A DNA stretch of 64,000 nucleotides, from contig CAZNVK010000003.1 in the NCBI GenBank assembly GCA_964576865.1, positions 25,245 through 89,244 of the forward strand. The letters run 5' to 3'. Position numbers and translations under genes: made by a program. The notes under the pieces were generated by a model. That model was given only the letters and a program-made list of their open reading frames with translations, searched no databases and was not told where the DNA came from. Below, in pieces: positions 7,980 through 32,300 of the stretch. The stretch comes from an uncultured Candidatus Poseidoniales archaeon (GTDB lineage: Archaea; Thermoplasmatota; Poseidoniia; Poseidoniales; Thalassarchaeaceae). Position 1 is the first letter of the stretch; the number at the start of each line of letters is the position of its first letter.

Positions 7980-8149
7980 CGCAACGGATGAGGCTACGCC
8001 TCCCGATTTGCTCTGGATTGCTGTCATTCATTCGCCAAATACGCGCGCTCACACTGGTCGGCGTTGGGTAAAGCCTGCTCAGACCGTAGGTCTGATTGAG
8101 AGTCTGGCCCGAACGTTCAAGTGGCTCGGAAAGCCGAACTTCGCCTCTG

Positions 8150-11100
8150 ATGGGCATGCGGTCGGCTGGTTTTGGGGCCTTTGAGAAGCGAGGGGCGGTT
8201 CTCGCCGTGCTTTCGCTACTCCTGCTATCGATGTCTCCGATGCTCTGGGGAATTGAGGATTCTGGGGATTCCCTCGCTGGTTCCCAGGGTGATTCCGCCT
8301 TCACGGGCGTTGTGGAACCTTGGTCTGACGGCGACCAACCCTGGCCACAGCCCGGACGACATGCTGAGCGCACGTCGAATGGCCCAGCTCACTCTCCTGA
8401 TGGCGGGGCTGGGACAGGTGCGCCTGCCGATGCCACCGAGTTGGCATCGGTGGTCGACCCGGTAGTCAATTGGGTCTACGGGTCGTACGGAATCGGTACT
8501 GATGCGCTCGGCACCCCGGTGGCTGACCTGAGTGCTCAGATCGTCACCGAGGAAGCTGCAGCCGAGCGCTGTGGGGGAGATTCCCTGTTCACTATAATTG
8601 TTCAGACAGTCGGGGTTGGAGGAAGCGACCACAGTGTGATGCGAATCATAGAGGGAGAGGATGCGGATCTTGCGTGGGAGGTGGATTTGGGTGCCACGGA
8701 GGACGTCAAGGCCTCGCCTGTTGTCGTCGATTTGGACGATGATGGCATGCAGGAAGTCCTAGTTGTCTACGATGCGGCTGGAACGATGTACGTGGATGCC
8801 TACTCCCCCCGCCTGCATTGTTCGGTGACCGGATGGTCCGCGGGCGGGTCGAAGAGTGGGGAATTGCTCTGGACCTACAGTGACGATGCTCTCCGCATAA
8901 GCAGCTCGGATGGCCCTTACACCTCCTCTCTATTCGGAGGTCACAAGCCAACGACTCAACCCCTGCTGGCGGATTTGGATCTCGATGGCGATGCTGAACT
9001 TGTTCTAGCCGCCATCGATGAGATCAGCGAGGATCCAGTAATCGTAGCCCTACCGCTTGGTGCTAACGGCGTGCCGACCCCCTTGTGGGAGTCGACCTTG
9101 CAGGATGGTAGCCACCCATCAGATCCAGCATTCGCCCAGGTGGATGATGAGACGGCTTACGTCTTGTTGACTACGACTCAAGCCTCGAGTGGGGCGATGT
9201 GGGTCTGGAAGTTGGATTCGACCAATGGTGACCAGAAGTGGGGTGGTTTGAGTCTCAACAATATCGATGGAAACTCCGATGTGCCACACATTCGCTTGCC
9301 AGGACCTATTGTTGCGAATCTCGATTCCGACGCTTCACCTGAGATGATAATCACCATTCCGACAGACGCCGATGGTTCGACGACAGACGACGGCGCGGAG
9401 TACCGCGGCCTCGAGATTGATGATGGGACTGCGATCTGGTCTTTCGAGGCTGTGAACGGTTACGCCGACGCGCCTCCTCTGGCGGTCGATACGGATGATG
9501 ATGACGTCATCGACCGCGTCTGTTGGATCTCTTGGTATCAGGAGACGACAGCTCGCCATGGCCACGCCGGATGTCACGACGTCTCAGGCAATAATCCACA
9601 ATTGGAGTGGCATCATGACCTCGAGCAGTCGAGTGGTTCTCCGAATGATGAAATCGCTGTTGGACAACCGATCTGGATGGATATCGACGGCAATGGTGCG
9701 CCCGAGATGCTTGTGGCTTACGGGCGCACGCTATGGGCTTGGGATGGCGACTCCGGCACACAAGCCTCGATCAATGACAATTGGAATGACGAGGTCGAGG
9801 TCGACCACAGGACATGGTCATCCCCAGCCCTCGCAGATGTCGACGGTGACGCCACCCTTGACATCATTCTAGGCGACACCGTCGTCTCGACAGCGCTCGC
9901 TGATGTGCGACCGCTGCTCGATGGGCGCGCAATAGAATTCAACCCGAGCGCCCCAGACCCAGGCGAGGAAGTGACAGTCACGGCCTTCTTCGAGAACGCA
10001 GGAACCACCGAAGTCGACCGCGCGGTGGACGCTGTGCTCTACGCGAATGGGGAGGTGATTGCCCGCCACCGCGCAGAATCACTCGAACCGACCGACCCCA
10101 CCGGATCGGCCGGCTTCGAATCATTCTCGGTGGAATGGTCGGGCGCGCTCGGCGAGCACGAGTTCGAACTCGTGCTCGACCCCTACCAGAATGTCACCCA
10201 ATCGAGGTACGATAACGATGGACAAGTCACCACGCTGACCATCGTCCCACCTTACAATGCGACATTCGAGATGCCGACGAATCCAGTGCGAGTCAATCCG
10301 GGAGACTCAACCATTGGTCAACCGACCGTCCGCTCAACCGGCCGACTCGCAGGAGTCTGGAGCCTGAGCGTGGATTCGTCGAACCTACCGACGGGATGGA
10401 CTTGGAGCGATGAAACCCCAGGCGGCATCAGCGGCATCGAGATCGCCACCGACTCAACTTGGACTCCCTCACTCAGAATCCACGCTCCAACCGATGCAGC
10501 CGGCTCCGACGCAGGTCATCTAACACTGACCTTGACCCTCGATGAGGACGCGAATGTCAGCGTGACCGGAGTCCTGCCAGTGGAAGCGAACCGAACCCGA
10601 GGGCTCTCGATCAGAGGCCCATCAGGAACCACCACGAGCACAGGATACGGACTGATCGGCGAATCCGCAAAGGCATGGCTCATCGTCGAGAATCTCGGGA
10701 ATGCCGACGAGAATTCAATCTCCATGTTCTGGGACAGCACCACTTGGGACTCTGCCGAAAACAACCTCGCTCTGCACGACGAGGAAGGAAATGAAATCCC
10801 AGCCCTAGGCCTCGACGCGGGTGAACAGCGTATCATAATCGCACGGTTAGGAGTCCCTTCGGACGCCAACCTCGGTGATTCAGTCTCAACCCCACTGACA
10901 ATGTGTGTTGGCAGCGGGGAGGAGGAGGCCTGTCAAACGGTCCAACTACAATTCACCGCTGCAGGGGTAACCACCGAAACCGACCACCAACGCAGCATGC
11001 CCGAAAATACCCTCGAATGGACGGTCACAGCAGACCTTCCGACCGCCAGCGGCGTTCTCGATTGGAGTATCAATGACGCAGGGATGGGAATTGAAGACTG

Positions 11101-13834
11101 GCAATGGAGCGCCGCGGGCTCACTCTCCATCAACGGGGACGATATCACCATGCAAGGTGTTCCGGGCTCACGCGTAACGGGTACCCTCACACTCGAGTTG
11201 CCGGTTGACGCACCACCCGCCTTCCACGCCTTCGCAGACGCCAGCAGCATAGGAGCCGACCATTCACTTCGCCTCTCGGTCGAAGTCCTGCAGATCCACC
11301 GAGCCTCCCTGACACTAATCTCACCGACAGAATCACCACATCTAGTCGAGGTCGAGGAACCGATCCCAGCAACCGTCCGCCTCTATAACCCAGGAAATGG
11401 CGAAGACACCTATTCGATGTCATACAGCCTTCTGCTCGACGATAACCTAAGCGAAGACCCCGGTGTCCAAGTAACATTCAGCAGTGATACGATAACCCTG
11501 CAAGCAGGAAGCCTTCGCACCCTCCCAGTCGAAGTAATCCTACCCGATACCACACCCGCACGCACCCCCGTCAATATCGAGATCACTATGACCTCGAACG
11601 GCGACCAGAGCGTCACCTCCTCGATCACACTGACCCTCGAAGCCCGCCAAGACCACCGCTGGGAAATCGAACTCACCTACCAAGGCAGCGCGATACAAGA
11701 CAGGACCTTCGCAGTCAACCCCGGCGATTCCTTCATCGTCGACATCATAGCAACCAACGTCGGAAATCTCCACGATGATATCGAAATCGCCGGCACCGGA
11801 ACCCTCCAGCACGAGGGTTCCGACACTGCCTCTAATTGGGTAATCGTCGGCGGTAACGCGAGCTCGGTACCGGTAAACGACACAACCCAGCTACAACTCA
11901 TCATCGAAGTACCGTTAGAAGCATGGAACGGTACCACATTCGCCATCAGTGGAAGCGCGACCGCCTTCGACATCGAGGTAGCCAACTTCGCATTCACCAT
12001 CGAAGCAGCCCATATCTCGGGCTGGACCGCGGTCGCACAAGACGCAGATTTGGAGATCGACCCCGAAGGGTCGACAGTGACACTGACAGTTATTCAGCAG
12101 GGTAATTCTCCGACCCGGCCTTACGCGTCCGTGCACGTCACAGGGGAGAACGGGTGGGATGTCCAAGCACCTGCGGAACTACCGATTCTCGAACCAGGGC
12201 AAACTGCCCAACTCAACCTCGAAATCACGCCACCAGACACCGCAAGACACGGGCGGACCGTCGAACTTCACATAAAACTCAGAGAAGGGGATGGGAGCAG
12301 CGAGGCGACCATCACACTGCCGCTGCGAGTCGCCGTCATCCACGAATTCAGGCTCGAGGGAACTGGGAATTGGATAGTCTCGGATGATGGCGGGTTCCCT
12401 CACGCGGAATTGCGTAACCTCGGAAATGCACCCACGACGATTTCACTCGAAGTTCTGAGCCTGCCTCAGGGTTGGACGGTGAGCGGGCGAACCCAGGTAG
12501 TCATCGGGGTTGACGAGGTTACTGGAGTCCCTCTTGAGGTGATTCCAGCCGAGGATTGGGATGGAACTTCGCGGACTATTCGAATTCTTGCTCAGGACGA
12601 GGCTGGGAATCAAGAGGAGATTTCACTCGATACTCAATACGAGGACCACTCGTGGGCCTCGTCGCCTATCATCGTGGTTGTCGACGGGGATAGTGCCCTG
12701 CTCGACATCCACGGGACGTCGCCTGCTTCCGGTGTTGTGGATGATATGCAATCCAGCCTTGATTGGGATCTGCAAGGAGGCTGGGTCTGGCAGGCGACAT
12801 CGGGCGGAGTCGGCACCCAATTGACAGTGGATTCCGACTCCGTGCTACCTTACACGGCTTATGTCATCGAGCCATCGAGTCGTTATGCGACATGTACCAT
12901 CGATGGCTCGGCGGTTTCAGTGAATGCGCATTGCAGCGTGGGCAATGGCACTGAATCCTTCTCATTCACAATCATGTTGATCGATGATGAAGGATCGATG
13001 CTCGACAGTCATGACGGGGTTCTTGCAGCGAATACCACATCGGGGAGAATCAATCTCAGCGCAGCCGGATGGAATCCAAGTCCCGGAATGCGTGAATTGA
13101 CGATTCGACTGCTGGATTCACGCGGAGTTCTCGTCGCATCGGAGGAGACCTCTTTTGAGATTCGAAGAAGCGATTGGAATGTCGGCTTGGTCGGATTGGA
13201 GATAGAGGGCGAGGGGGCCTCGCAGAAAATCAAGGTCCTGACCAAAAGGGAGTATCACCATCTTCTGAGCGATGCTGATTGCAGCATCAGCGTCGTGGCT
13301 GGAGATCATAGCGCCAGCCATAGCATCGACGTCACCGGAATCTACCCACCCGAGCCGAAATTGGACCGACCGGATGTCGATGATGGAACCGAGATGATCG
13401 TGACCATTCAATGCCAATTCCCTTGGGATGAGGATTCCGACCCGAGTGATGATGAGGCTCGATTGATTCTCTCGGGAGGCTCGATTGGCACCGATGATGG
13501 CTTTGAGTGGGGCACGGCACTAGGCTCTGCCGGACTGATTATCGCGCTCGCGCTGACGCTGACTTGGATTCTGTACAACCAGCGCGAGCGAAAGCGACTC
13601 CTCGAGATGACTGAATCTGTTATCAAGCAGAAGAGCCGACGCAAAGCGACCGGTGAGAGCAAGTCTGACACTATGCTTGAACTACCTCCTCCAGCCGCCC
13701 CAGAAGGAGTTGGCGAAGATCCGGTCGCACCGCAAGATAGCCCTCCGGAACCGGTCGCTCCTGAGCCCGAGGAAGAGGTGGAAGAGCTCGATGAGTTCGA
13801 GAGCAGGTTCAAGCGTCTGACCGGCGGCGAGTGA
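8150..13834 (+). CDS. Giant cell-surface protein: FG-GAP/PQQ-like propeller, CARDB and NEW3/Ig-like domains, C-terminal TM anchor
   Basis: Signal peptide; repeated DLDDDG/DLDLDG/DIDGNG/DVDGD Ca-binding loops; CARDB (ENAGT...LDP.QNV.QSRYDND); repeated N.GN..D Ig motifs; TM helix then acidic Pro-rich tail. Confidence 0.88.
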   Translation: MGMRSAGFGAFEKRGAVLAVLSLLLLSMSPMLWGIEDSGDSLAGSQGDSAFTGVVEPWSDGDQPWPQPGRHAERTSNGPAHSPDGGAGTGAPADATELASVVDPVVNWVYGSYGIGTDALGTPVADLSAQIVTEEAAAERCGGDSLFTIIVQTVGVGGSDHSVMRIIEGEDADLAWEVDLGATEDVKASPVVVDLDDDGMQEVLVVYDAAGTMYVDAYSPRLHCSVTGWSAGGSKSGELLWTYSDDALRISSSDGPYTSSLFGGHKPTTQPLLADLDLDGDAELVLAAIDEISEDPVIVALPLGANGVPTPLWESTLQDGSHPSDPAFAQVDDETAYVLLTTTQASSGAMWVWKLDSTNGDQKWGGLSLNNIDGNSDVPHIRLPGPIVANLDSDASPEMIITIPTDADGSTTDDGAEYRGLEIDDGTAIWSFEAVNGYADAPPLAVDTDDDDVIDRVCWISWYQETTARHGHAGCHDVSGNNPQLEWHHDLEQSSGSPNDEIAVGQPIWMDIDGNGAPEMLVAYGRTLWAWDGDSGTQASINDNWNDEVEVDHRTWSSPALADVDGDATLDIILGDTVVSTALADVRPLLDGRAIEFNPSAPDPGEEVTVTAFFENAGTTEVDRAVDAVLYANGEVIARHRAESLEPTDPTGSAGFESFSVEWSGALGEHEFELVLDPYQNVTQSRYDNDGQVTTLTIVPPYNATFEMPTNPVRVNPGDSTIGQPTVRSTGRLAGVWSLSVDSSNLPTGWTWSDETPGGISGIEIATDSTWTPSLRIHAPTDAAGSDAGHLTLTLTLDEDANVSVTGVLPVEANRTRGLSIRGPSGTTTSTGYGLIGESAKAWLIVENLGNADENSISMFWDSTTWDSAENNLALHDEEGNEIPALGLDAGEQRIIIARLGVPSDANLGDSVSTPLTMCVGSGEEEACQTVQLQFTAAGVTTETDHQRSMPENTLEWTVTADLPTASGVLDWSINDAGMGIEDWQWSAAGSLSINGDDITMQGVPGSRVTGTLTLELPVDAPPAFHAFADASSIGADHSLRLSVEVLQIHRASLTLISPTESPHLVEVEEPIPATVRLYNPGNGEDTYSMSYSLLLDDNLSEDPGVQVTFSSDTITLQAGSLRTLPVEVILPDTTPARTPVNIEITMTSNGDQSVTSSITLTLEARQDHRWEIELTYQGSAIQDRTFAVNPGDSFIVDIIATNVGNLHDDIEIAGTGTLQHEGSDTASNWVIVGGNASSVPVNDTTQLQLIIEVPLEAWNGTTFAISGSATAFDIEVANFAFTIEAAHISGWTAVAQDADLEIDPEGSTVTLTVIQQGNSPTRPYASVHVTGENGWDVQAPAELPILEPGQTAQLNLEITPPDTARHGRTVELHIKLREGDGSSEATITLPLRVAVIHEFRLEGTGNWIVSDDGGFPHAELRNLGNAPTTISLEVLSLPQGWTVSGRTQVVIGVDEVTGVPLEVIPAEDWDGTSRTIRILAQDEAGNQEEISLDTQYEDHSWASSPIIVVVDGDSALLDIHGTSPASGVVDDMQSSLDWDLQGGWVWQATSGGVGTQLTVDSDSVLPYTAYVIEPSSRYATCTIDGSAVSVNAHCSVGNGTESFSFTIMLIDDEGSMLDSHDGVLAANTTSGRINLSAAGWNPSPGMRELTIRLLDSRGVLVASEETSFEIRRSDWNVGLVGLEIEGEGASQKIKVLTKREYHHLLSDADCSISVVAGDHSASHSIDVTGIYPPEPKLDRPDVDDGTEMIVTIQCQFPWDEDSDPSDDEARLILSGGSIGTDDGFEWGTALGSAGLIIALALTLTWILYNQRERKRLLEMTESVIKQKSRRKATGESKSDTMLELPPPAAPEGVGEDPVAPQDSPPEPVAPEPEEEVEELDEFESRFKRLTGGE

Positions 13835-14514: not shown

Positions 14515-15252
14515 TCAGATGAGTCGACGGGCGTGCAAGGCTTCGTAGATTGGGCGGACTTGGTCGAGGACAGATTGGTGCTCGGGGGGTAGTTCACCGA
14601 TTCGTGGTGTATATTCTGCGAAGCCGGTTGAAGCCCAGACCGCGTCGTACCAGTGTTCGGCCCAGATTCCATCGCAATCTTTGGGGCCGGGAGCCCAGCT
14701 GAGCATGGATTCGTCGAAGGGAATGCCGAGGTGTATGCAGACCTTGGTCAGCATACCCTTCGGGTCGAGCAGGATGTCTCGTGAATCGACGATGAGAATT
14801 TCTTGTCCCATCTCCTCGACCGTGGCGACCAGACGTGCTTGTTGAGGTAAGCCGGTCGCCCAGGCATCGACCGCGTCGGTCTTCTTGGCGAGTGAAAGTA
14901 AGACCTCACGCGGGTCTCGGATTAGGAAGCAATTGTCGAAGCCATGCAGCCAATCGAGGCCGATGCCTTCGATCATGTGGTGACACATGTGTTTCTGATA
15001 CCATACGGGCGAGCCATCCGGTACATCGCCTGATAGATGCCCGGCTACGGCTCGCCAATCGGTCTCGCCCTCGGCGATGACCGCCTCGGCGACGGGATGT
15101 TCGATTTCTGTCGCCGCCAAATAATGCGCATAAAACGGCTCATCGCTGGCAAAGCAATCCGGCCGACTATCGAATGAATACATCATAGCAGTCGAAATGT
15201 TTCGCGGACCGGACCACATGGCGATTCGCTTGACAGGGCCGCCGGCCGCCAT
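14515..15252 (-). CDS. Sulfotransferase-like P-loop protein (aminotransferase-IV-associated type)
   Basis: RIAMWSGPRNISTA, DEPFY, YQKHM.HH, FLIRDP..VL.S, ML.W..G motifs. Confidence 0.85.
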   Translation of the reverse strand: MAAGGPVKRIAMWSGPRNISTAMMYSFDSRPDCFASDEPFYAHYLAATEIEHPVAEAVIAEGETDWRAVAGHLSGDVPDGSPVWYQKHMCHHMIEGIGLDWLHGFDNCFLIRDPREVLLSLAKKTDAVDAWATGLPQQARLVATVEEMGQEILIVDSRDILLDPKGMLTKVCIHLGIPFDESMLSWAPGPKDCDGIWAEHWYDAVWASTGFAEYTPRIGELPPEHQSVLDQVRPIYEALHARRLI

Positions 15253-15253
15253 C

Positions 15254-16162
15254 TCAAGCACCTGCTTCACGCCGGACCAAATCGATGTAGAGATTCTGTA
15301 AGCGCTCGGCCATCGGGCCTCGCGCGCCCCCGCTCATCAGCTCACCATCGTACTCGACGACCGGTGTCAAACCTGCAAAAGTCCCAGTCACAAAAGCCTC
15401 GTCTGCCGTGCGTACGTGCTCTGTGGTGAAGTCGCGCTCGAAGGAAGGGATTCCGTTCGTTTCGCATAAATCGAGGATTTTTCGACGGGTGATTCCGTCG
15501 AGGCAGTATTCACCCGTCGAGGTCCAAACCTCACCATTTCTGACGATGAAGAAATGTGTCGAATTGCAGGTGGCGACATTTCCGTTGGGGTCCAGCATGA
15601 GGCCTTCATCGCCACCCTTGCGGCCAGCGTCGAGGCAGCCTGCGATGCAATTGTGCTTGGACAGGCTGTTGATTCGCGGGTCTTGAGCGTTCTGCGGTCC
15701 GCGAATAATGTCGACGGTGACTAATCTGATGCCGTCGATGGCGCGCTGAGGATTGGCCTTCTTGTGCTCGGGGATGATGACGATGGTCGGCGGACCTGCG
15801 ACAACCCAAGGTGCTTGGTAAGGCGTAGGCTTGAGCCCGCGCGTGACGATCAGCCGAATGTGGACTTGGTCGTGCATCTCATTGGCCTCGACGACTTCAC
15901 CGATTCTCGCGAGCATCGCCTCGCGCGAAATCGGAATCTCCATGCCGATGACCTCCGCGCCGTGCCAAAGCCGTTCGAGATGGTCATCTATGAAGACGAG
16001 AACGCCCTCGTGAAGCCGGAAAGCCTCCCAGACCCCATCGCCCAGCAAAAAGCCGGCGTCCATCACCGAGACCTTGGCCTCGGGACGCCGAACCAACTCG
16101 CCGTCTATCGAAATCAACACATTGGCGTTGCGAGGATCATCGACATACTCGTGAGTACCCAC
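15254..16162 (-). CDS. PLP-dependent aminotransferase class IV (BCAT/DAAT-like)
   Basis: GFLLGDGVWE, HLERL, LDGITR, ADEAFVTGTFAG motifs. Confidence 0.92.
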   Translation of the reverse strand: MGTHEYVDDPRNANVLISIDGELVRRPEAKVSVMDAGFLLGDGVWEAFRLHEGVLVFIDDHLERLWHGAEVIGMEIPISREAMLARIGEVVEANEMHDQVHIRLIVTRGLKPTPYQAPWVVAGPPTIVIIPEHKKANPQRAIDGIRLVTVDIIRGPQNAQDPRINSLSKHNCIAGCLDAGRKGGDEGLMLDPNGNVATCNSTHFFIVRNGEVWTSTGEYCLDGITRRKILDLCETNGIPSFERDFTTEHVRTADEAFVTGTFAGLTPVVEYDGELMSGGARGPMAERLQNLYIDLVRREAGA

Positions 16163-16188
16163 GACCGACCCTCGAGGCTAACCACACT

Positions 16189-17100
16189 TCAGAATGACTG
16201 ACCGGTCAGCCGCTCGTACATATCGGCGTATAGAGTCGCAGTCTGGTCGATAATCTCCTGCGGGAGAGCAGGAATCGGCGGCTCCTCAGTACCGTTCTGG
16301 CGAGCCTCGTACAACTCGGTGTGATGACCGGTTCCGAGATAGTGCCCGCGAACGAATTCCTTCGACAACTGGACAATCTCGCCATTTGCGTACGACTCAG
16401 CATCCCACCAGCGGTCCTCATCGAGAGTACCGAATGAGTCCACCAAGACAGGCTTGCGTCCAACGCCGAGCGCGAATTCCTTCTTGCCATCGACGTGAAT
16501 CAAGCCGCGGGCAGCAGCCTCGCGCTCAATGATCTCATCAACCTCAACAGCAATCCTGCAAATCGCATCAAACTCCTCACCGGTCAAATTCGAAATCTCA
16601 AGAGCCTCTTCGCGGTCGAGCAATCGGTCGAACTTCTCGAACTTCGTCGAGACCTCAACATAAGGCGCGGGCAACTTGACACCCTCTTCTAGCACAGTGC
16701 CCGGCTCGAACCCGAACTCCTCCGCCCCAGCATCACCACGCTTGTACCGGCGCCATCCGCTACCAGCCAGATAGTGCCGACAAATGACCTCGAGGGGAAC
16801 GAATACATTCTCGCGATCCCTCGCGATCGCGCCCGGCTCGCGCACAACATCGAATCTCCTCGCACGAACGCGATCGGGCGCGTTCATCTCGATTACATGC
16901 GTATCACAGATGCCCGCTTCCTCAACCAGCTTGAACCAGTGGCAGGAGGTGCGGTTTAACGACTCACCTTTGCGGGGGATGAGGCTAGGGATGATTTGGT
17001 CGAAAACACTGATCTGGTCAGTATACCGAAATTCGATGACATCGGGGTCCTCCGTGCTCCAAACCTGCTTCACCTTGCCATGGTAGATCATCTCGCCCAT
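16189..17100 (-). CDS. purC: SAICAR synthase
   Basis: GKVKQV, DQISVFD, KGESLN, PLEVICRHYLAGS, DGKKEF, DEDRWW, SKEFVR; start reset to ATG 17100. Confidence 0.95.
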   Translation of the reverse strand: MGEMIYHGKVKQVWSTEDPDVIEFRYTDQISVFDQIIPSLIPRKGESLNRTSCHWFKLVEEAGICDTHVIEMNAPDRVRARRFDVVREPGAIARDRENVFVPLEVICRHYLAGSGWRRYKRGDAGAEEFGFEPGTVLEEGVKLPAPYVEVSTKFEKFDRLLDREEALEISNLTGEEFDAICRIAVEVDEIIEREAAARGLIHVDGKKEFALGVGRKPVLVDSFGTLDEDRWWDAESYANGEIVQLSKEFVRGHYLGTGHHTELYEARQNGTEEPPIPALPQEIIDQTATLYADMYERLTGQSF

Positions 17101-17257
17101 ATCGCGGGTGCCTGCGCGAGTCGCCGATGAACATTGCTGATGGAAATCCTCGGTTTCGCAGTGAGTTTTCGACCCCTGTGGGTGGAACTGATGCAAGAGG
17201 GGTCGGGACTATATTCTGCATGCTTTTCGCTCGCGCGTGAAGGCTGCGCAACCCGGT

Positions 17258-19291
17258 ATGGAGAGGATATTCTCCTGGTCTGCTCTCGATGAGAGATCGC
17301 GGGTTGCGTTGATTGTGATGTTCGTCTTGGCGGTCTCGATCGCACCGACGGTCGGTCAGAGCGTCGAGACCGGTTGGGTCAGCGTTGAGAGCGGTACGGA
17401 GGCCGATCTCAACGCTGCTGAGGTACACGGAGATTCTGTTTGGGCATTCGGTGATGGAGGAGTCACTCTGGTCAGTGAAGATGGAGGGTTGACTTGGGCG
17501 AGCCATGGAACGCTCGGTGTATCCGACCTCATCGCAGCCGATTCCTATGCTGACTCGATGGCCGTCCTAGCGAGTGATGGGAGCGTTCATCTCAAGGTCG
17601 GAATCGAGGGGGAATGGCAGGCATTGGATTCGGGCGCTTCAGGCATGCGAAGCCTGGCTGTAACCGGTAGTGAATCACTCATACTCGTGGGCGATGCCGG
17701 AATCATTCTTGAGTATGATTCCGGAACTTGGGACGATAGAACCAGTTCCTTCATCGAAGACCTCAACGATGTCTCTTTCTACGATGAAAACGATGGATTC
17801 GCAGTTGGAGATTCTGGTACGATTCTCGCCACGACAGACGGAGGGGCGACTTGGGATTATCGTGAAGCGCCAGCTGAGGCTCAAGACGCTGCGCTTGTTT
17901 CTATGGAGTTCTTCAATCCCTACAGGATGTTCGCAATAAGCGATTCAGGTCAGATTCTATACTCCACATCTTCAGGAGGACATGAATGGAACCTCAGAGA
18001 AATCGAATCCGAGGGATACAGCACGACACTGGGAATCGAACTCAGCTCCATCGACGTTGTTTCCGCATCGAAAATCCTCTTCGCCGGTCCAGACGGATTC
18101 CTCGGACTTAGTACCGACCAAGGTCTCAACGTCGAGGAAAACTTGCTTCCTGAGGGAGTTAGCGGTTCATTCAACGACCACGCAATGATCGACCATTTGA
18201 GAGGAGTGGTCGTCGGTGATGGTGGAGTAATTCTCTACACGACATCCTCCGGTGAGAATGAGTTAGTCGGATTCGAAATTCCGGATTACAATAACTTCGG
18301 AGAATTCGTCGAGTATGCCGATGAGATGCTGCTCGGTGGATTCATTGCCACCGTCAAAATCGTCCTCTTCGGTATCCTCTTCGGATTCGTCATCGGAGTT
18401 CTCTTGGCGATGATGAAAACTGCGCCGACCTCATTCAAGAATATCTTCGAGCGCGCACCACTACAGGCGGTGAAAGGAATCGGCGGGAGCCTAATTCTCC
18501 TCGGAGCATGGTTGAGTTATAGTGGTGCGAGCCGATTTGGCGAACTCGGACTCTCGGGTTTGCAGTACATCTTCACTCCAGTTGGAGACCCGCGGGGTTT
18601 CGCGATGTTCGCCCTAGGTTTGGGTCTCTTCGCCCTAGGTGTGCAATTCATCAGAGCGGATGTCAAACTCAGCGGTCCTCTGTTCAAAGTCCGACCGCTG
18701 AACACCCTTGCAACGGTTTACACCGATTTCTTCCGTAATACTCCGCTAATCGTCCAATTCATGTTCATTCACTTCGGATTGAGCCTGGGCATGAGGATCC
18801 AGCAATTGTTGGAGGGCACCTTCGGCGATACTGGCACCGATGGCTTGGATTACTTCATCTACGGAGAGAGGACCTTCCTGAGCGCGATTTTTGCTCTCGG
18901 ACTTAACTCGGGCGCCTATCAGTGCGAGACAATCCGAGGTGCCATCTCAGCGATTCCCAGCGGACAGATGGAAGCTGGACGAAGCATCGGTCTGACGTAT
19001 CTGGGAACCATGCAATTGGTTATCATGCCTCAAGCGATTCGAATCTGTATTCCACCGATCGGCAATGAGATGGTCAATCTCGTCCTCAACTCGTCACTGG
19101 CGATGGTCATCGGCTATTCTGAGTTATCTCGTCAGGGTCGATTGATGATTGCAACGACCTTCCAGATATTCTACGCTTGGGGATTGGTGATGATCTCGTA
19201 TTTCGTCGTGACTTGGACATTGGCTCTGCTCTTGCGGCGTTTGGAAGATTGGTCTCGCATCCCTGGACTGGGAATATCGGGGGGTGCATGA
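17258..19291 (+). CDS. Polar amino-acid ABC permease fused to an N-terminal YCF48-like (Asp-box) beta-propeller
   Basis: Signal/TM helix; repeats A(V/F)GD.G.IL and SEDGGLTW/TTDGGATW; C-terminal HisM/GlnP motifs FRNTPLIVQ, AYQCETIRG, GQMEAGRSIG, PQA..I.IPP..NE. Confidence 0.9.
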   Translation: MERIFSWSALDERSRVALIVMFVLAVSIAPTVGQSVETGWVSVESGTEADLNAAEVHGDSVWAFGDGGVTLVSEDGGLTWASHGTLGVSDLIAADSYADSMAVLASDGSVHLKVGIEGEWQALDSGASGMRSLAVTGSESLILVGDAGIILEYDSGTWDDRTSSFIEDLNDVSFYDENDGFAVGDSGTILATTDGGATWDYREAPAEAQDAALVSMEFFNPYRMFAISDSGQILYSTSSGGHEWNLREIESEGYSTTLGIELSSIDVVSASKILFAGPDGFLGLSTDQGLNVEENLLPEGVSGSFNDHAMIDHLRGVVVGDGGVILYTTSSGENELVGFEIPDYNNFGEFVEYADEMLLGGFIATVKIVLFGILFGFVIGVLLAMMKTAPTSFKNIFERAPLQAVKGIGGSLILLGAWLSYSGASRFGELGLSGLQYIFTPVGDPRGFAMFALGLGLFALGVQFIRADVKLSGPLFKVRPLNTLATVYTDFFRNTPLIVQFMFIHFGLSLGMRIQQLLEGTFGDTGTDGLDYFIYGERTFLSAIFALGLNSGAYQCETIRGAISAIPSGQMEAGRSIGLTYLGTMQLVIMPQAIRICIPPIGNEMVNLVLNSSLAMVIGYSELSRQGRLMIATTFQIFYAWGLVMISYFVVTWTLALLLRRLEDWSRIPGLGISGGA

Positions 19292-20035
19292 ATGTCACAA
19301 CCGGTTCTTTCGATTACCGAATTGCACAAGATCTACCCCGGTGGGGTCCACGCGGTTCGTGGAGTTTCCTTTGAGGTGAATGAGGGGGAGTCGGTTGCGA
19401 TTATCGGCTCGTCAGGTTCAGGAAAATCGACCGTGCTTCGCTGCATTAATCGGCTGATCGAGCCGACAGAAGGGGTGATTTCTCTTCGCGGAGAGCAGAT
19501 CAACACCCCGAGCGCGAATGTGAATGAGGTTCGAAGTCGGATTGGTATGGTCTTCCAATCCTTCGAATTATTCGCGCATCTGAAGGTGCTTGACAATGTG
19601 ACTCTCGGTTTGCGCCACGTGCGAGGGATGAGTAGGGCGGTGGCTGAGGAGGTTGCTCTCGAAGTGCTTGAGCGGGTCGATATGCTGGATCGCGTGCACG
19701 CCTATCCGGGGAATTTGTCGGGTGGGCAGAAGCAGCGCGTGGCGATCGCGAGGGCGCTGGCGATGAAGCCTGAGGTGATTCTGTTCGATGAGCCGACAAG
19801 CGCCCTCGACCCCGAATTGATCGGTTCTGTGTTGCAGACGATTCGTGGTTTGGCCGACGAGGGGATGACGATGGTCATCGTTACTCACGAGATCAATTTC
19901 GCGCGGGATGTGGCTGATCGAATCGTCTACATGGACAAGGGTCAGGTTGCCGAGGAGGGGCCTTCGGACATCATCAACAATCCGAAGAGCGAGCGATTGA
20001 CGAAGTTCCTCTCCTCGATGAATGAAGAGCACTGA
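19292..20035 (+). CDS. Polar amino-acid ABC transporter ATP-binding protein (GlnQ-like)
   Basis: GSSGSGKST, MVFQSF.LF, LSGGQKQR, FDEPTSALDPE, VTHE. Confidence 0.96.
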   Translation: MSQPVLSITELHKIYPGGVHAVRGVSFEVNEGESVAIIGSSGSGKSTVLRCINRLIEPTEGVISLRGEQINTPSANVNEVRSRIGMVFQSFELFAHLKVLDNVTLGLRHVRGMSRAVAEEVALEVLERVDMLDRVHAYPGNLSGGQKQRVAIARALAMKPEVILFDEPTSALDPELIGSVLQTIRGLADEGMTMVIVTHEINFARDVADRIVYMDKGQVAEEGPSDIINNPKSERLTKFLSSMNEEH

Positions 20036-20084: not shown

Positions 20085-21560
<1,476 letters not shown>

Positions 21561-23832: not shown

Positions 23833-26745
23833 ATGGCGGTTGGCATCTCCGACCTCGCACGCTTCGAGAGGCTCACTCCGTTTCGCGTGCGTGACGTACT
23901 CCTCGTCGCAAGTCCATTCGACCATTATCTGCTTGAGGAATCAGGTCACCTCGCCGAGATCATGCGTCAAGAATACAAGGATCTCAACCTCTCCCAAGCC
24001 CCTCGAATGATTCACAGTCCACAGGCAAAAGATGCCCTGGAATTACTCCGAAGCCGTAGTTTCGACCTTGTCATCACCATGGCCAGGGTTGGTGCAATGG
24101 ATGCGTACGCCTTCGGCCGGGAAGCGAAACGCATCAAACCTGAGCTTCCCGTCGTCATGCTCAGTCACAATACACGAGAACTCGCGACCCTGCATGCTGG
24201 GGATGGCATCGACCGCATCTTCGTCTGGACCGGCGACAGTCGAATTCTCCTCTCAATCTGCAAGCTCATCGAAGACGAGCACAACGTCGCCAATGATGTC
24301 GAGAATGCGGATGTTCAGGTCATTCTGCTCGTCGAAGATAGTCGGCGATTCTACTCGGCCTACCTACCACTGCTCTACACCCAACTCGTCAATCAGACCA
24401 TGCGGCTGATGGGCGAGGGAGGAAATCTGCACGAGAGATTGCTTCGCCTGCGCGCACGAGCCAAGATTCTACTCGCTAGCGACTATCAGACCGCGCAGGA
24501 ATTATTCGACAAATATCATCACAATATCATCGGGGTCTTCACCGATGGAAAATTCCCCGACCCGATCGATGGAAGGGATACTGCAGGCCTCAAATTGGCG
24601 AGTTACGCGCGGGCGCGTCACTCGAATCTACCGATTCTATTCCAATCGAAAAACGCTGAACTGAAGGATGACGCGGAGGCACTTGGTGTGCGTTTCCTGC
24701 ACAAAGAGGACTCACAATTGTACGCGCGGATAGCTGAATTCATGCTTGAGGAAATGAGCTTCGGTGACTTCGTTTTCAAGCTGCCCGACGGAAGTGAAGT
24801 TGCACGGGCTTCGACGTTGCGCGAGTTGGCTGAGAGGCTGAAGGAGGCGCCCATTGAATCGGTCGAATATCACGCCCAACGCAACCATTTCTCACACTGG
24901 CTACGCACTCGCACAGAGTTCACACTGGCTGCTTCGCTACGTCCTATGACGCTAGCTGATTTCGAGACAACCGAGGAGATTCGCCGATTCATTCTCGTGA
25001 CGATAGAGGCGCATATTGCACAGATTCACAGCAGGACGATTCGAGACCACGACGCTGAGAGCTTGGAAATTGGATTCCATCGGATTGGACGAGGTAGTCT
25101 TGGTGGCAAAGGTCGTGGTCTCGCCTTTTTCTTCACTCGGATGCCTGATTTGGGACTCGAGGACAGATTTCCCGAGGTCGAATTCATCGTTCCTAGATCC
25201 GTCGTGCTTTCGACCGATGTTTTTGAGGAGTTTGTCGAGGCGAATGGATTGGCGAGGTTCGCTCACGAGGAACACGATGACTCCGAGGTTGATGCAGCAT
25301 TCTTGGCTGGGGAATTGGGAGGTTCGATTCGCGATGAGTTGACCGCGATGGTTTCGCAACTGAGGCGGCCGTTGGCGATTCGCTCGTCTAGCTTGCTCGA
25401 GGATGCGAGTCACCAGCCTTTTGCCGGTGTTTATGCTACTCATATGCTTGCTAATGACCACGGAGAGGTCGCGGTTCGGTTGGCTAGGTTGGAGGAGGCT
25501 ATCAAACTGGTTTACGCTTCGACCTATCATAAGAGCGCCAAGGCCTATGTTTCTGCTACGCCATCCAATATCGAGGATGAGCGGATGGCGGTTGTGATTC
25601 AGGAATTGGTTGGGCGCGAGGTGAATGGTCGCTATTATCCGCATATCTCTGGGGCGGCGCGGTCTCGTAATCACTACCCTGTGGCGCCGCTGCGGGCTGA
25701 GGATGGAATCGCCGCTGTGTGCATCGGTTTGGGGCGGCAGGTGGCTTCGGGCGAGAAGTGTTTGAGGTTCAGCCCGGGGCAGCCGAAGCGGATTCATCAA
25801 TTCCACAGCACCGCTTCGATGCTCGATACTTCCCAGACCAGTTTCTGGGCGATACCGATGGGTGAATCAGAGAATCCTGTTTCGCCGGATGAAGCCGAGA
25901 ATCTGGTAAATCTGGGTTTGTGGGAGGCAGAGACGGATGGGAGACTGGGTTTGGTCGGCTCGACCTACGTCACGGCCGACGATAGAGTGGTGGATTCGGT
26001 GAAGGTGGGTGGAGGGCCGCGAGTTGTGACATTCGCTCCTGTCCTCAAGCACAATCGCGTCCGGTTGGCAGGTATCCTCCATCATGTGTTGACGCGATGT
26101 GAAGCCTACCTGAATTCACCGATCGAGATTGAATTCGCCTTCATCACAGATGATGAGACGGGGCAGCAGATCTTCGCACTGCTTCAGGTGCGACCGATGC
26201 TCGAAGAGTCGGTCGACATCGATATCGACATGAGCGAGGTCGACCGCAGCCGAGCGATTTGCATGTCGAGCCGTTCGCTCGGCAATGGTGTTGTAGATGA
26301 TATCCAAGATGTGGTCTACATCCACCCCGAACGCCTCGACCGCATGCGGACGAGCAATCTCACCGACCACATCGAAGCGATCGATGCTCAACTCAGGGCC
26401 GAGGGGAGGCCGTACCTGCTGATTGGCCCCGGAAGATGGGGCTCGTCCGACTCTTCTCTTGGAATACCAGTTTCATGGGACCAGATCAGAGGGGCGAAGG
26501 CGATCGTGGAAGTGCCGATGTCAGATATTCATGTAGAACCCAGTCAGGGGACTCATTTCTTCCAGAATATAGTCACCTTCCACATTGGTTATCTGACCAT
26601 AACTGCCGATGATATGCTAGATTTCGATTGGTTGGATAGGATTGAGCCGGAGGCCGAAATCGGGCCGCTTCGCCACATCGGCCTCGAGAAGCCGCTGAAA
26701 GTCGTCCTCGATAGTCGCGACTCCGAAGCTATCATCCTACGATAA
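23833..26745 (+). CDS. Receiver-domain / PEP-synthase nucleotide-binding (PPDK_N) hybrid with divergent His-swivel C-terminus
   Basis: Two REC-like domains (second: ILLVED...VFTD...FQS...HK), DUF5752-like segment, GGKG/IRSS..ED/FAG/LLQVRP ATP-grasp motifs, C-terminal AKAIVE...SQGTHFF. Confidence 0.88.
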   Translation: MAVGISDLARFERLTPFRVRDVLLVASPFDHYLLEESGHLAEIMRQEYKDLNLSQAPRMIHSPQAKDALELLRSRSFDLVITMARVGAMDAYAFGREAKRIKPELPVVMLSHNTRELATLHAGDGIDRIFVWTGDSRILLSICKLIEDEHNVANDVENADVQVILLVEDSRRFYSAYLPLLYTQLVNQTMRLMGEGGNLHERLLRLRARAKILLASDYQTAQELFDKYHHNIIGVFTDGKFPDPIDGRDTAGLKLASYARARHSNLPILFQSKNAELKDDAEALGVRFLHKEDSQLYARIAEFMLEEMSFGDFVFKLPDGSEVARASTLRELAERLKEAPIESVEYHAQRNHFSHWLRTRTEFTLAASLRPMTLADFETTEEIRRFILVTIEAHIAQIHSRTIRDHDAESLEIGFHRIGRGSLGGKGRGLAFFFTRMPDLGLEDRFPEVEFIVPRSVVLSTDVFEEFVEANGLARFAHEEHDDSEVDAAFLAGELGGSIRDELTAMVSQLRRPLAIRSSSLLEDASHQPFAGVYATHMLANDHGEVAVRLARLEEAIKLVYASTYHKSAKAYVSATPSNIEDERMAVVIQELVGREVNGRYYPHISGAARSRNHYPVAPLRAEDGIAAVCIGLGRQVASGEKCLRFSPGQPKRIHQFHSTASMLDTSQTSFWAIPMGESENPVSPDEAENLVNLGLWEAETDGRLGLVGSTYVTADDRVVDSVKVGGGPRVVTFAPVLKHNRVRLAGILHHVLTRCEAYLNSPIEIEFAFITDDETGQQIFALLQVRPMLEESVDIDIDMSEVDRSRAICMSSRSLGNGVVDDIQDVVYIHPERLDRMRTSNLTDHIEAIDAQLRAEGRPYLLIGPGRWGSSDSSLGIPVSWDQIRGAKAIVEVPMSDIHVEPSQGTHFFQNIVTFHIGYLTITADDMLDFDWLDRIEPEAEIGPLRHIGLEKPLKVVLDSRDSEAIILR

Positions 26746-29391: not shown

Positions 29392-32300
29392 TCACGCCGC
29401 TGCTTCGGTCAATTCGTAAGCATCACGCTCGGGGACTTCCTGCAGATCATCGATTTCCTGCAAGACCATCGAGAGAGCGTGCTGCGCGTTCTGTCGGTGT
29501 CCATCACCGAGTCGGTGCGAGGAATATCTCGCTTCTTCGAAGATTCGATCCAAGGCGACGAGAGCCTGTTCGCTGATCGGTAGAGCCTTGCGAATCGCCA
29601 TCTCGAATTCACGCACCGTCTCGAAGTCACGGCGAAGGAATCCGTGTCGCATCAAGATGTTACATAGGCTCTCGTAACAATTGAAGATGGCTTCACGGAT
29701 TTCATCTCCCGCCGCCAGCAATTCAGCTGTGTAACTGAAGATACCCGCCATCTCATCGAGCGCTGCCTGACGGCGGCGGCGCAGCGAAATCGCCAATCCT
29801 GCAGCCGTCCCCAGAATCAGCAGAATTCCAATCAGGGCGACGATCTGCCAGAATGTGAAAGGAGGAGCCGGATCCTCGTAGGTCATCTGTATTCCTCCGT
29901 GTTCGTTGGCAAGCCAGAATCTGTCTGCTGGAGCGATCAACTGAGAATCGGTCTGGAAAATAAGGGTGAGATCACCCCAGCGTGATTTGTCGTGGAATGG
30001 AGGCTGATTCTCGATTTCGAAGCGGTAATCCATCACTCCATCTGAGTCGGTCAATTTGACATTCTGGAAGTGAATCATGGTGGTGTTCACCAATCTGGCA
30101 ACGATTGAGATTCCTTCAACCGGCAATCCGGTATCTTGGGCTGTAATCGTCACATTACCCTTGATGACGCGTTGGTTCTCCTTGATATGGTGGGTATCAG
30201 GGTTGAACGTGAAGGTGACAGGAACTCGAATGTTTACGATGTGTTCAATCGAGGCTGAATTGAGATAGCGGTCCGCATCTGAAAGTGCTGTTAATTGCAA
30301 AGAGAGATCTCCTGCAGGCATCGTTGAACGTGCTGGCGACCTGAGATCGAAATGTCCTGTGGATTCGTCCCAAGTCACGGTCGAACGCTCCGCAACGCCA
30401 TCCCAGAGCAGAACGACTTCCATCTCTTCAATGACATCTCCTTCGCCTCCGACTTCGACGATTCTTCCGACCAACTCGATGTCGTAGGCGTCATTCGAGC
30501 GGATGATGATATCTGTCTGCCAGAGCAGTTCGATCACCACATCCGCTCGCGCAAAGACGGTCATGTTGTATTCGACGGGGAGATAGAATGTCTGTCCCTC
30601 AAAGGTGAATCTGATGTCGTGACCGCCCCGGGCGATAAGATAACCAATGGCGTGGTCAAATTTGAAATTGCCATCATAGCCAGTGGTGGTTCTGTGAATC
30701 TCCTCACCATTCAGTGTGACGATGATCTCACGCCCGACCAAACCAGGGGCGCCGGCAGAGTCTGCGTCGAATAGGCGCCCAGTGAAATTCCACTTCTCAC
30801 CTCGCGTCACCGAGACATCATCCACTTGCAGGTTCATACCCGTGTGGTAGGCAATGGTCAGGTTTGCATCGACGCTTCCTGGTCGGTGATATCCTTGGGC
30901 AGGAGCCGAGATGGTCAAAGTGTGGAATCCAACATCGAGGAAGTCCGAGATGACCCAATTGTATGACCAATCACCATTCTCGTCTGTGGAGGTTATTCCA
31001 ATCAACGTTCCATCGATGAATATCTCGATCGAGTGATTGGCCAGCCAGCCATCGGGCAGGTTATCGCGCACGGTCCCTGTCAGGCGCAGAGTATCTCCTA
31101 CCGCGTGGGCTGCAGGTGGGTCCACGTGCACGATGGCTGGTCCGAAGACGGTGAAGACGGTGGTGGAGTTCGACGCGAGGATGAATTCCTCGCCTGCGAA
31201 GGTGATCTTCACCAGGCGAGGACCGAGCGGCATGTCTGGAGGAATCGGGACGTAGATGCTGAATGTCCCATTGCTGGCAACTGTGAGGCCAGTAAGGAAT
31301 TGATCATTCATTGTCACTCTGAGATATCGATTGCCGAGAGCTCGACCTGCACCATCGGTCAGCATTCCCTCGATGAGTAGTAATTCGTTGCGGTCGACCT
31401 CTCCAGGAGGTGTAGTGAGCACGACTTGAGAAGTCTGGGTGACGTTGAACATCTCAGTCGTGCTCGATGGCAGATAATATTCAGGATTCAGGGAGTCTCC
31501 TTGACCCATTGGGTCTACCCAGGTGAATCCGCCGAGGAATCTAGCGGTGACCAGATGGGCTCCGTAATCCGTGTCGAGAGGCAGATTGTAGGTGACCGAC
31601 CACGCGCCGCTGGATGCGTTGGAGCGAGTGGTGTAAGCGCTGCCGACATCGACTCCGTCAATCCATATGTGGATGATTCCGCCTGATAGCAATCCGCCGT
31701 TCGTCAGCGCTTGCCCATGTTCATCGAGAAGGGTTCCACTGAATGTGATGCTCTCACCGGCGATCATCGAACCGCTCATCTCAGTAATTTCAAGAATTGA
31801 CGGAGCGAGAACGATGACTCTCGTCCAGGTTGAGTCGCCGTTGAGTCCTGTAGTGCCGTTGATGCCAGCGAATTCGGCGGTGATCAACATCGGTCCTTGT
31901 TCTCGGGTGGAGTCGACGGGGATGACCAAGGTCGCGCGCCCGTCGACATCTGTCGGAATCGTCTGAATGACATTACCATCGACTAGGATGTCAACCTCCT
32001 CGTTTCCAACCAATTGGCCGGCATTATCGATGAGAGAGATGTTGATGCTCACATCGTTGCCTCTCACGACCCTCCGATCGGGGTCTAGATCCGCCGGGTC
32101 GACAATGGTAATCAGTGAATATCCACGGCTATCGAATGAACCGGTGCCGCTGCTCGAACTGTAGTAATTCACCGATGGGGTGTAGGTAGCGGTTATGCTG
32201 TGGGTGCCTCTTGGGAAGGAGAGCCCGAGGGTAATCACAGCATTCCAGGTTCCATTCGGATTGACCGCTCCACCTGAGATTTGGAAGCCGCTGTCGTCAC

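Follow-up and report, generated by a model that had tools for sequence, protein, structure and literature searches.

A Ycf48-like propeller fused to a polar amino acid permease in marine group II archaea: a candidate docking domain for a family-3 binding protein

Importers such as HisQMP2, ArtQN and GlnHPQ are built from permeases of the HisM/GlnP family, which carry an EAA loop, and a GlnQ/HisP-like ATPase, and they depend on family-3 binding proteins that are free or lipid-anchored. GlnPQ from Lactococcus lactis has one permease gene and one ATPase gene, and its binding domains (SBP_bac_3) are fused to the permease: a signal sequence, the extracytoplasmic domain and a short linker precede the first transmembrane helix (TM1), and the receptor is kept near the translocator. 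The stretch of DNA analysed here (the window, 64,000 nucleotides in all) comes from a marine group IIb archaeon of the order Poseidoniales, and its positions 17258-20035 are the membrane and ATPase part of a type I polar amino acid importer (PAAT). The permease family, the EAA loop and the ATPase type are those of HisQMP2, ArtQN and GlnHPQ, and the gene pair and the order of signal sequence, extracytoplasmic domain, linker and permease are those of GlnPQ. The fused domain, however, is a Ycf48-like propeller and not SBP_bac_3, and two extra helices lie between TM1 and TM2; a 300-aa propeller and a helix pair are likewise additions with respect to HisQMP2, ArtQN and GlnHPQ.

We propose that the system is a binding-protein-dependent PAAT importer and that the propeller most likely docks or tethers the receptor rather than replacing it; this is the reading we favour, with about even confidence. 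The receptor would then be kept near the translocator, as in GlnPQ, but it is not part of the permease chain: it is a circularly permuted protein or domain of its own and would be tethered, if at all, non-covalently. Dependence on a family-3 binding protein, shared with HisQMP2, ArtQN and GlnHPQ, is suggested here by ancestral neighbourhoods; the receptors differ from those of the three systems in being permuted and, in the window's genus, in that the receptor would be one domain of a three-domain protein with two LivK-type domains.

The features of the locus are given below, with the evidence in brackets; residues of the fusion protein are numbered throughout on the 684-aa frame that starts at GTG 17237.

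17258..19291, forward strand: fusion gene encoding a signal helix, a Ycf48-like propeller and a PAAT-type permease (open reading frame, Pfam, NCBIfam, database copy)
17300..17356, forward strand: hydrophobic signal or anchor helix, residues 22-40 (AlphaFold2 (AF2) helix 19-34; hydropathy segment 20-44)
17360..18271, forward strand: seven-bladed Ycf48-like propeller, residues 42-345 (PSII_BNR, AF2, Foldseek, Asp-boxes)
17912..18247, forward strand: predicted contact loops of blades 5-7, residues 226-337 (interface list, conservation)
18296..18421, forward strand: linker helix and permease TM1, residues 354-395 (AF2 helix 354-395; short-form alignment)
18434..18652, forward strand: lineage-specific insertion between TM1 and the canonical TM2, residues 400-472, with two extra membrane helices (short forms, AF2, NCBIfam)
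18680..19252, forward strand: core BPD_transp_1 domain, residues 482-672 (Pfam, NCBIfam)
18971..19030, forward strand: EAA loop, the ATPase coupling site, residues 579-598 (sequence; invariant columns)
19292..20035, forward strand: GlnQ-like ATP-binding cassette (ABC) ATPase, 247 aa (Pfam, NCBIfam; start abuts the permease stop)

The extracytoplasmic domain was assigned from profile searches and structure prediction. PSII_BNR (Pfam) scored 56.9 bits against a cut-off of 27 at residues 163-252, a match that spans just profile positions 7-95 of 303. The AF2 model of the fusion protein, built on 56 relatives (mean predicted local distance difference test score, pLDDT, 77; predicted template modelling score, pTM, 0.48), has seven blades over residues 42-344 with pLDDT about 85-92, and a helical membrane part. 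When the PDB was searched with Foldseek, all matches listed at ranks 1-11 were Ycf48 chains, the top listed one being 5oj5_A (E 3.4e-14, target template modelling score 0.75, 304 columns). The seven-bladed fold, the target score of about 0.75, a PSII_BNR match over its cut-off and a location on the outer face of the membrane are the points of likeness to Ycf48/HCF136. On the other side, sequence identity to the Ycf48 chains in Foldseek is 17-19%, and the Ycf48 equivalog level was not reached (NCBIfam NF010237, 60.9 bits against a cut-off of 326). Ycf48/HCF136 is moreover a free-standing lumenal protein of oxygenic phototrophs, whereas this propeller is fused to an ABC permease in a non-photosynthetic Poseidoniales archaeon and has a binding protein as its predicted partner. 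As regards the conserved Arg patch with which Ycf48 binds D1, R209 and R230 of the propeller are conserved in the alignment of relatives.

Membership of the BNR/Asp-box sialidases or of Sortilin-Vps10 was considered and rejected: both models stayed under their Pfam cut-offs (BNR 13.7 against 27, Sortilin-Vps10 18.6 against 33) and only two perfect Asp-boxes are present, SEDGGLTW (residue 80) and TTDGGATW (residue 199). A GlnPQ-type permease with a fused binding domain was rejected as well, as PF00497 (SBP_bac_3) found no match in the fusion protein at E up to 0.1 and the N-terminal domain is a propeller by both AF2 and Foldseek. PF25852, a precomputed Pfam tag of many relatives, was not reproduced by our own scans at E up to 10.

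The fusion was found in 48 of 151 sampled Poseidoniales genomes, every one in the window's family. With the window's own genome excluded, it occurs in 47 of 74 genomes of that family and in none of the 74 that belong to the other large family, and six genera carry it in 11/11, 10/10, 7/7, 9/9, 7/8 and 3/3 of their genomes. It is also encoded at 78 loci from named genome records, all Poseidoniales or marine group II by title, and its neighbours keep their order in the 16 loci compared. Short forms of 560-634 aa, which have the same two domains and no insertion, come from sources named Heimdallarchaeota, Kariarchaeaceae, Hodarchaeales and Poseidoniia; within the same class, full-length short forms were present in three of the eight genomes of one sister-order family. 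A metagenome scan by permease-core patterns gave full-length fusions at 8 of 80 loci. A search for PSII_BNR together with BPD_transp_1, suggested by an earlier note on this DNA, thus places the architecture in one Poseidoniales family, in the sister order and, by source name, in Heimdallarchaeota.

These counts bear on the possibility that the fusion is an assembly or frameshift artefact, absent from relatives as the earlier note had allowed, or a decaying gene. Both Pfam tags are present in 117 of the 120 best database relatives, the frame is full-length and stop-free in all 48 genomes, one of them a single-contig genome, and the motif columns are invariant in 56 sequences. No point was found in favour of an artefact or of decay; the conserved full-length fusions refute it and we give it practically no credence.

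In the window's genome, which is 84.6% complete, SBP_bac_3 was found only on contigs C9 and C10 and is absent from the operon, the window and contig C3, to which the window belongs. At a related locus, L046, the gene directly upstream of the fusion gene and divergent from it encodes an SBP_bac_3 protein of 331 aa, which has a signal sequence and, at its C-terminus, a membrane helix. An initial hidden Markov model (HMM) detected an adjacent binding protein at 4 of 78 loci; whole-genome searches with Pfam and with A2, an alignment of the L046-type adjacent protein, found the gene in 13 of the 48 fusion-bearing genomes, always adjoining the fusion gene and nowhere else. At L095 the adjacent gene lies at L095:2068-3054. 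Among the short forms a family-3 binding-protein gene stands divergently and directly upstream at six of the six loci examined: three sister-order loci encode a homologue of about 320 aa there (Pfam E 1e-21 to 8e-25; hhalign probability 99.4 against A2) and three metagenome loci an upstream binding protein with E 2e-62 to 2.5e-103 by our own HMM.

A quick maximum-likelihood tree, 91 of its 95 rows being different, was rooted on the six short forms. Rows with the adjacent gene are basal in each main subclade, the window's 20-row clade is wholly without it, and the fewest gain or loss changes that account for its distribution are five. Taken together, the short-form loci, the 13 genomes and the rooted tree show that the ancestral unit comprised binding protein, propeller-permease and ATPase. 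The ancestral receptor was a protein of about 320 aa anchored in the membrane, with its gene upstream in divergent orientation, and on the rooted tree the lack of an adjacent gene in the window's clade is a derived loss.

The loss might instead mean that in the window's genus the propeller took over substrate capture and the importer works without a binding protein, much as the earlier note had it when it placed a propeller there instead of a solute-binding domain. Its observation that the operon and window hold no solute-binding gene is correct and speaks for such a takeover; so do the lack of the adjacent gene throughout the genus (12 genomes, counting the window's) and the degenerate look of the surviving A2-type proteins, in which, for example, the Arg of the T-x-x-R motif is missing. 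However, as the ancestral unit already held both, the propeller is not a substitute for the binding protein: it is older than the gene loss, the two coexisting at the six short-form loci and in the 13 genomes, and in the alignment the propeller of the window's genus shows no change peculiar to it. Eleven of the 12 genomes of the genus have an unassigned homologous binding domain, and it also counts against a takeover that we know of no natural type I importer that works without a binding protein. Such a takeover therefore seems improbable, and the proposal that it stands in for a solute-binding domain is not supported.

The A2-type proteins (L046, L073, L032, L089, L096, L097, L101) are fast-evolving. 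The Arg that they lack, which presumably binds the ligand carboxylate, is retained in the C10 and sister-order proteins. The adjacent protein of L046 has no resemblance to the Aap-like binding protein encoded on C9.

Docking of a receptor by the propeller requires a receptor, and in the window's genome there is one candidate. The genome has two PAAT permease systems, the fusion and, on C9, an Aap-like operon that encodes a 405-aa binding protein of its own, and two SBP_bac_3 receptors, on C9 and C10; a single-contig genome of the same genus gives the same counts. Since the numbers of permeases and receptors match and the C9 protein belongs to the Aap-like operon, the C10 domain is the sole unassigned receptor. 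A weak TIGR01726 match on contig C20, tried as a third PAAT system, turned out to be a Dpp/Opp-type peptide permease. The C10 receptor is a lipoprotein-like protein of 1028 aa with an N-terminal SBP_bac_3 domain and two Peripla_BP_6 (LivK-type) domains, and we infer that the first of these three domains serves the fusion transporter in the window's genus.

Several comparisons relate this domain to the binding proteins encoded beside the fusion. A tblastn search of the window's genome with the L046 adjacent protein found the C10 domain (27.6% identity over 221 aa, E 2e-9) and otherwise matches at chance level. The domain is 38-43% identical to the short-form-adjacent binding proteins and 18-24% identical to the A2 proteins. 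Its nearest solved relatives, which bind glutamine, arginine and similar amino acids, are the binding domains of GlnPQ (6h30, E 6e-29) and ancestral Gln/Arg binders. Alignment, solved structures and NCBIfam matches agree that, like the binding proteins encoded beside the fusion, it is circularly permuted, though at a different point. Of the 48 fusion-bearing genomes, 46 carry a C10-type domain. The double Peripla_BP_6 receptor itself is more widespread (82 of 151 genomes); 36 of these genomes are fusion-free, and one of the 36 (G117) has the SBP_bac_3 domain.

The search for an orphan SBP_bac_3 that the earlier note had suggested thus ends at an unassigned homologous domain on C10. Two things that the same note set against its own proposal were a cognate binding protein that always co-occurs and a propeller that is dispensable; the co-occurrence is largely what was found, given the adjacent genes and the C10-type domain in 46 of 48 genomes.

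Some further observations on these receptors and on the Aap-like system may be recorded. On contig C10 the 1028-aa receptor stands beside a 1243-aa BPD_transp_2 (LivHM-like) permease fusion, the two occupying L010:855-7788 (-). Fusion-free relatives have a double Peripla_BP_6 receptor without the first, SBP_bac_3, domain. Relative to the canonical order, the transporter-linked family-3 proteins are permuted at three different points, as seen in the alignment and in split structure and NCBIfam matches; the set comprises L010:6874-7788 (-, contig C10), L102:5754-6722 (-), L046:6817-7812 (-) and L105:2825-3808 (-). Some C10-type receptors have a Cys-containing insert of about 30 aa right after the lipobox-like AGCLGG (L194:113-1120, L195:133-1143, L201:259-1287). 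The AapJQMP system on C9 resembles the fusion system in its permease superfamily and in its enlarged permeases (723 and 536 aa), but its operon encodes a non-permuted binding protein of its own, its two permeases differ from each other and it lacks a propeller. In that operon, L009:4522-10362 (+), about 300 N-terminal residues of both permeases and about 200 internal residues of the longer one match no Pfam family.

Contact between propeller and receptor was examined by complex prediction for one pair, the propeller (residues 40-352, alignment A1) and the C10 domain (residues 30-300, alignment A4). The prediction supports binding, with scores of 0.73, 0.72 and 0.55 (median 0.72) against 0.00 for the best of three controls. 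Of 157 solved complexes 116 reach the score mark, as do 2 of 215 mismatched pairs; with alignments of our own making as input, these counts apply only roughly. At least 84% of the contacts are common to the runs, and the partner's pLDDT is at least 90. As we know of no solved complex of this propeller-receptor kind, a pass from model memory seems unlikely.

On the propeller side the predicted contacts lie in the A-B and C-D loops, as read from the AF2 strands, and include R230, which is invariant, D294 (95% kept) and K279 (84% kept). On the receptor side they comprise SGEYD, where the last canonical helix ends, and GAVVLTDDR, the linker produced by the circular permutation. Receptor residues V219-D224 are identical in the six short-form-adjacent proteins and are 60-100% kept in 20 C10-type domains. 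Passages of PMC10403576 describe how Ycf48 itself grips the lumenal loops and the extended, unfolded tail of D1, a membrane protein; a propeller that grips an extended segment of its partner at the membrane surface thus fits the known use of the fold. That the propeller might dock a distant binding protein had been one of the alternatives in the earlier note, and it is this alternative that gains support from the unassigned homologous domain on C10 and from the controlled prediction.

A different possibility is that the propeller binds peptides, other proteins, glycans or an envelope component, the binding protein docking on the permease unaided. Propellers of the Ycf48 and Asp-box types appear as general protein and peptide binders in the same passages (PMC10403576), and giant proteins of 1000-6600 aa, in which the propeller type found here recurs many times over, are the most frequent class among the 150 matches listed for the whole protein. 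The propeller interface is, in addition, just modestly conserved. Against this, the neighbourhoods suggest neither a ligand nor a partner, the receptor contact in the controlled prediction is specific and repeatable (0.72 against 0.00), and the receptor segment that it involves shows striking conservation between orders. We therefore regard another ligand as possible but unlikely, and find it similarly doubtful that the propeller concentrates substrates or a peptidase or anchors the transporter in the envelope.

Receptor docking has points against it too. The contact is a prediction on our own alignments for a single pair, with controls that included neither the Aap-like nor an A2-type binding protein. 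Conservation of the propeller interface is barely above that of the rest (0.59 against 0.51, permutation p about 0.03), and the A2-type adjacent proteins of the 13 genomes do not retain VVLTDD; to judge from their sequences, these proteins, if they serve the transporter there, would bind the propeller differently or not at all. At a pTM of 0.48 the pose of the propeller over the permease is uncertain in the AF2 model, and so is the receptor's reach to the docking site. The co-occurrence of domain and fusion is largely at clade level and related genomes are not independent, so that it is a consistent pattern and not statistical proof; G117 carries the domain without the fusion, and G073 and G137 (87% and 82% complete) carry the fusion without a detected domain. 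Finally, with the window's genome 84.6% complete, the assembly could have missed another binding protein.

If the propeller docks the receptor, the importer may be pictured as follows. With one permease gene and one ATPase gene there are presumably two copies of each protein per transporter, and family membership and neighbourhoods suggest that the homodimeric permease and two ATPases would import a polar amino acid delivered by a family-3 receptor. The propeller lies just outside TM1 on each permease chain, joined by a linker of about 10-25 residues. On the outer face of the membrane it is predicted to bind the receptor's permutation linker (GAVVLTDD) and the adjacent helix end, and the receptor would thereby be held at the transporter, a predicted non-covalent counterpart of the fused binding domains of GlnPQ. 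The two LivK-type domains of the C10 protein might serve another transporter family. Much more tentatively, then, the propeller may be the first domain known on a type I importer that is dedicated to docking the receptor, gripping a permutation linker, and the C10 protein a three-domain hub that feeds two unrelated ABC importers. A limited literature search met no earlier description of a propeller-permease fusion; the marine group II passages of one source name only aapJ and livK receptors (PMC9723583).

The permease domain matched BPD_transp_1 (Pfam) with 57.3 bits against a cut-off of 26.4 at residues 482-672, and the HEQRo_perm_3TM signature TIGR01726 (NCBIfam) with 54.5 bits against 42.2, in two stretches divided by the insertion. 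The GlnP, TcyL and HisM equivalogs, each also matched in two stretches, scored 123-125 bits against cut-offs of about 300; with scores so far under the cut-offs, these models do not allow the substrate to be named. The EAA loop EAGRSIGLTYLGTMQLVIMP (579-598) is intact, and E579, A580, R582, S583, G585 and P598 are invariant across 56 aligned relatives. The extra helices are at 409-437 and 441-472 in the AF2 model, and the short relatives lack residues from about 400 to 480 in the alignment. The insertion between TM1 and TM2 varies in length, from none in the short forms through about 70 aa in the window's genus to about 250 aa in forms of 863-874 aa, being longer than the window's in relatives of 770-874 aa; the insertions of about 250 aa hold further hydrophobic segments (relatives L039-L083).

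The fusion gene is a single uninterrupted frame on the forward strand, from GTG 17237 or ATG 17258 to 19291, and encodes 684 or 677 aa; ATG 17258 fits as the start, as the database copy has 677 aa. The permease stop TGA at 19289-19291 is followed with zero gap by the ATG of the ATPase gene at 19292. The ATPase, of the HisP/GlnQ type expected for a PAAT permease, matched ABC_tran at E 8.7e-38 (Pfam) and the GlnQ model at 285 bits, under the equivalog cut-off of 379 (NCBIfam). The operon is convergent with gdhA at 20085-21542 (-), a conserved neighbour of the fusion within the family; as gdhA is missing from the sister-order locus L102, it says little on the substrate. The architecture given in the earlier note therefore stands almost unchanged: the signal helix, the propeller and its acidic character throughout, the HisM/GlnP-type permease with an intact EAA loop and about two extra hydrophobic helices (Pfam, NCBIfam, AF2 and short-form alignment), the gapless ATPase gene and the convergence on gdhA are all found, and only the propeller length of about 320 aa is revised, to about 300 aa.

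Other genes of the window were noted in passing. Divergent from the fusion gene, window 14515-17196 (-) holds genes for a sulfotransferase, a class IV aminotransferase and SAICAR synthetase; in relatives with an adjacent binding-protein gene, that gene stands between purC and the fusion gene. An open reading frame of 1912 aa at 8096-13834 (+) has immunoglobulin-like, FG-GAP and NPCBM-associated domains, and one at 23833-26745 (+) encodes a 970-aa protein with a PPDK_N ATP-binding domain, DUF5752 and a sub-threshold receiver-domain match; in most of the 16 relative loci compared, frames of similar size lie upstream and downstream of the fusion, respectively. Very long frames of 2979 and 980 aa occupy 29392-38331 (-) and 38418-41360 (-).

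In archaea and Gram-positives, which have no closed periplasm, what usually keeps binding proteins near their importers is covalent fusion or an anchor, either a lipid or a helix. A receptor-docking propeller, if true, would be a third way to keep a binding protein at the importer. The attractive reading of a type I importer free of a binding protein is now corrected, the predicted contact between named residues offers a testable docking hypothesis in its place, and a set of circularly permuted family-3 binding proteins is brought to notice. Members of the fusion family abound in marine group IIb and its planktonic archaeal relatives, and according to passages of PMC9723583 amino acid receptor genes are among the most transcribed in these organisms.

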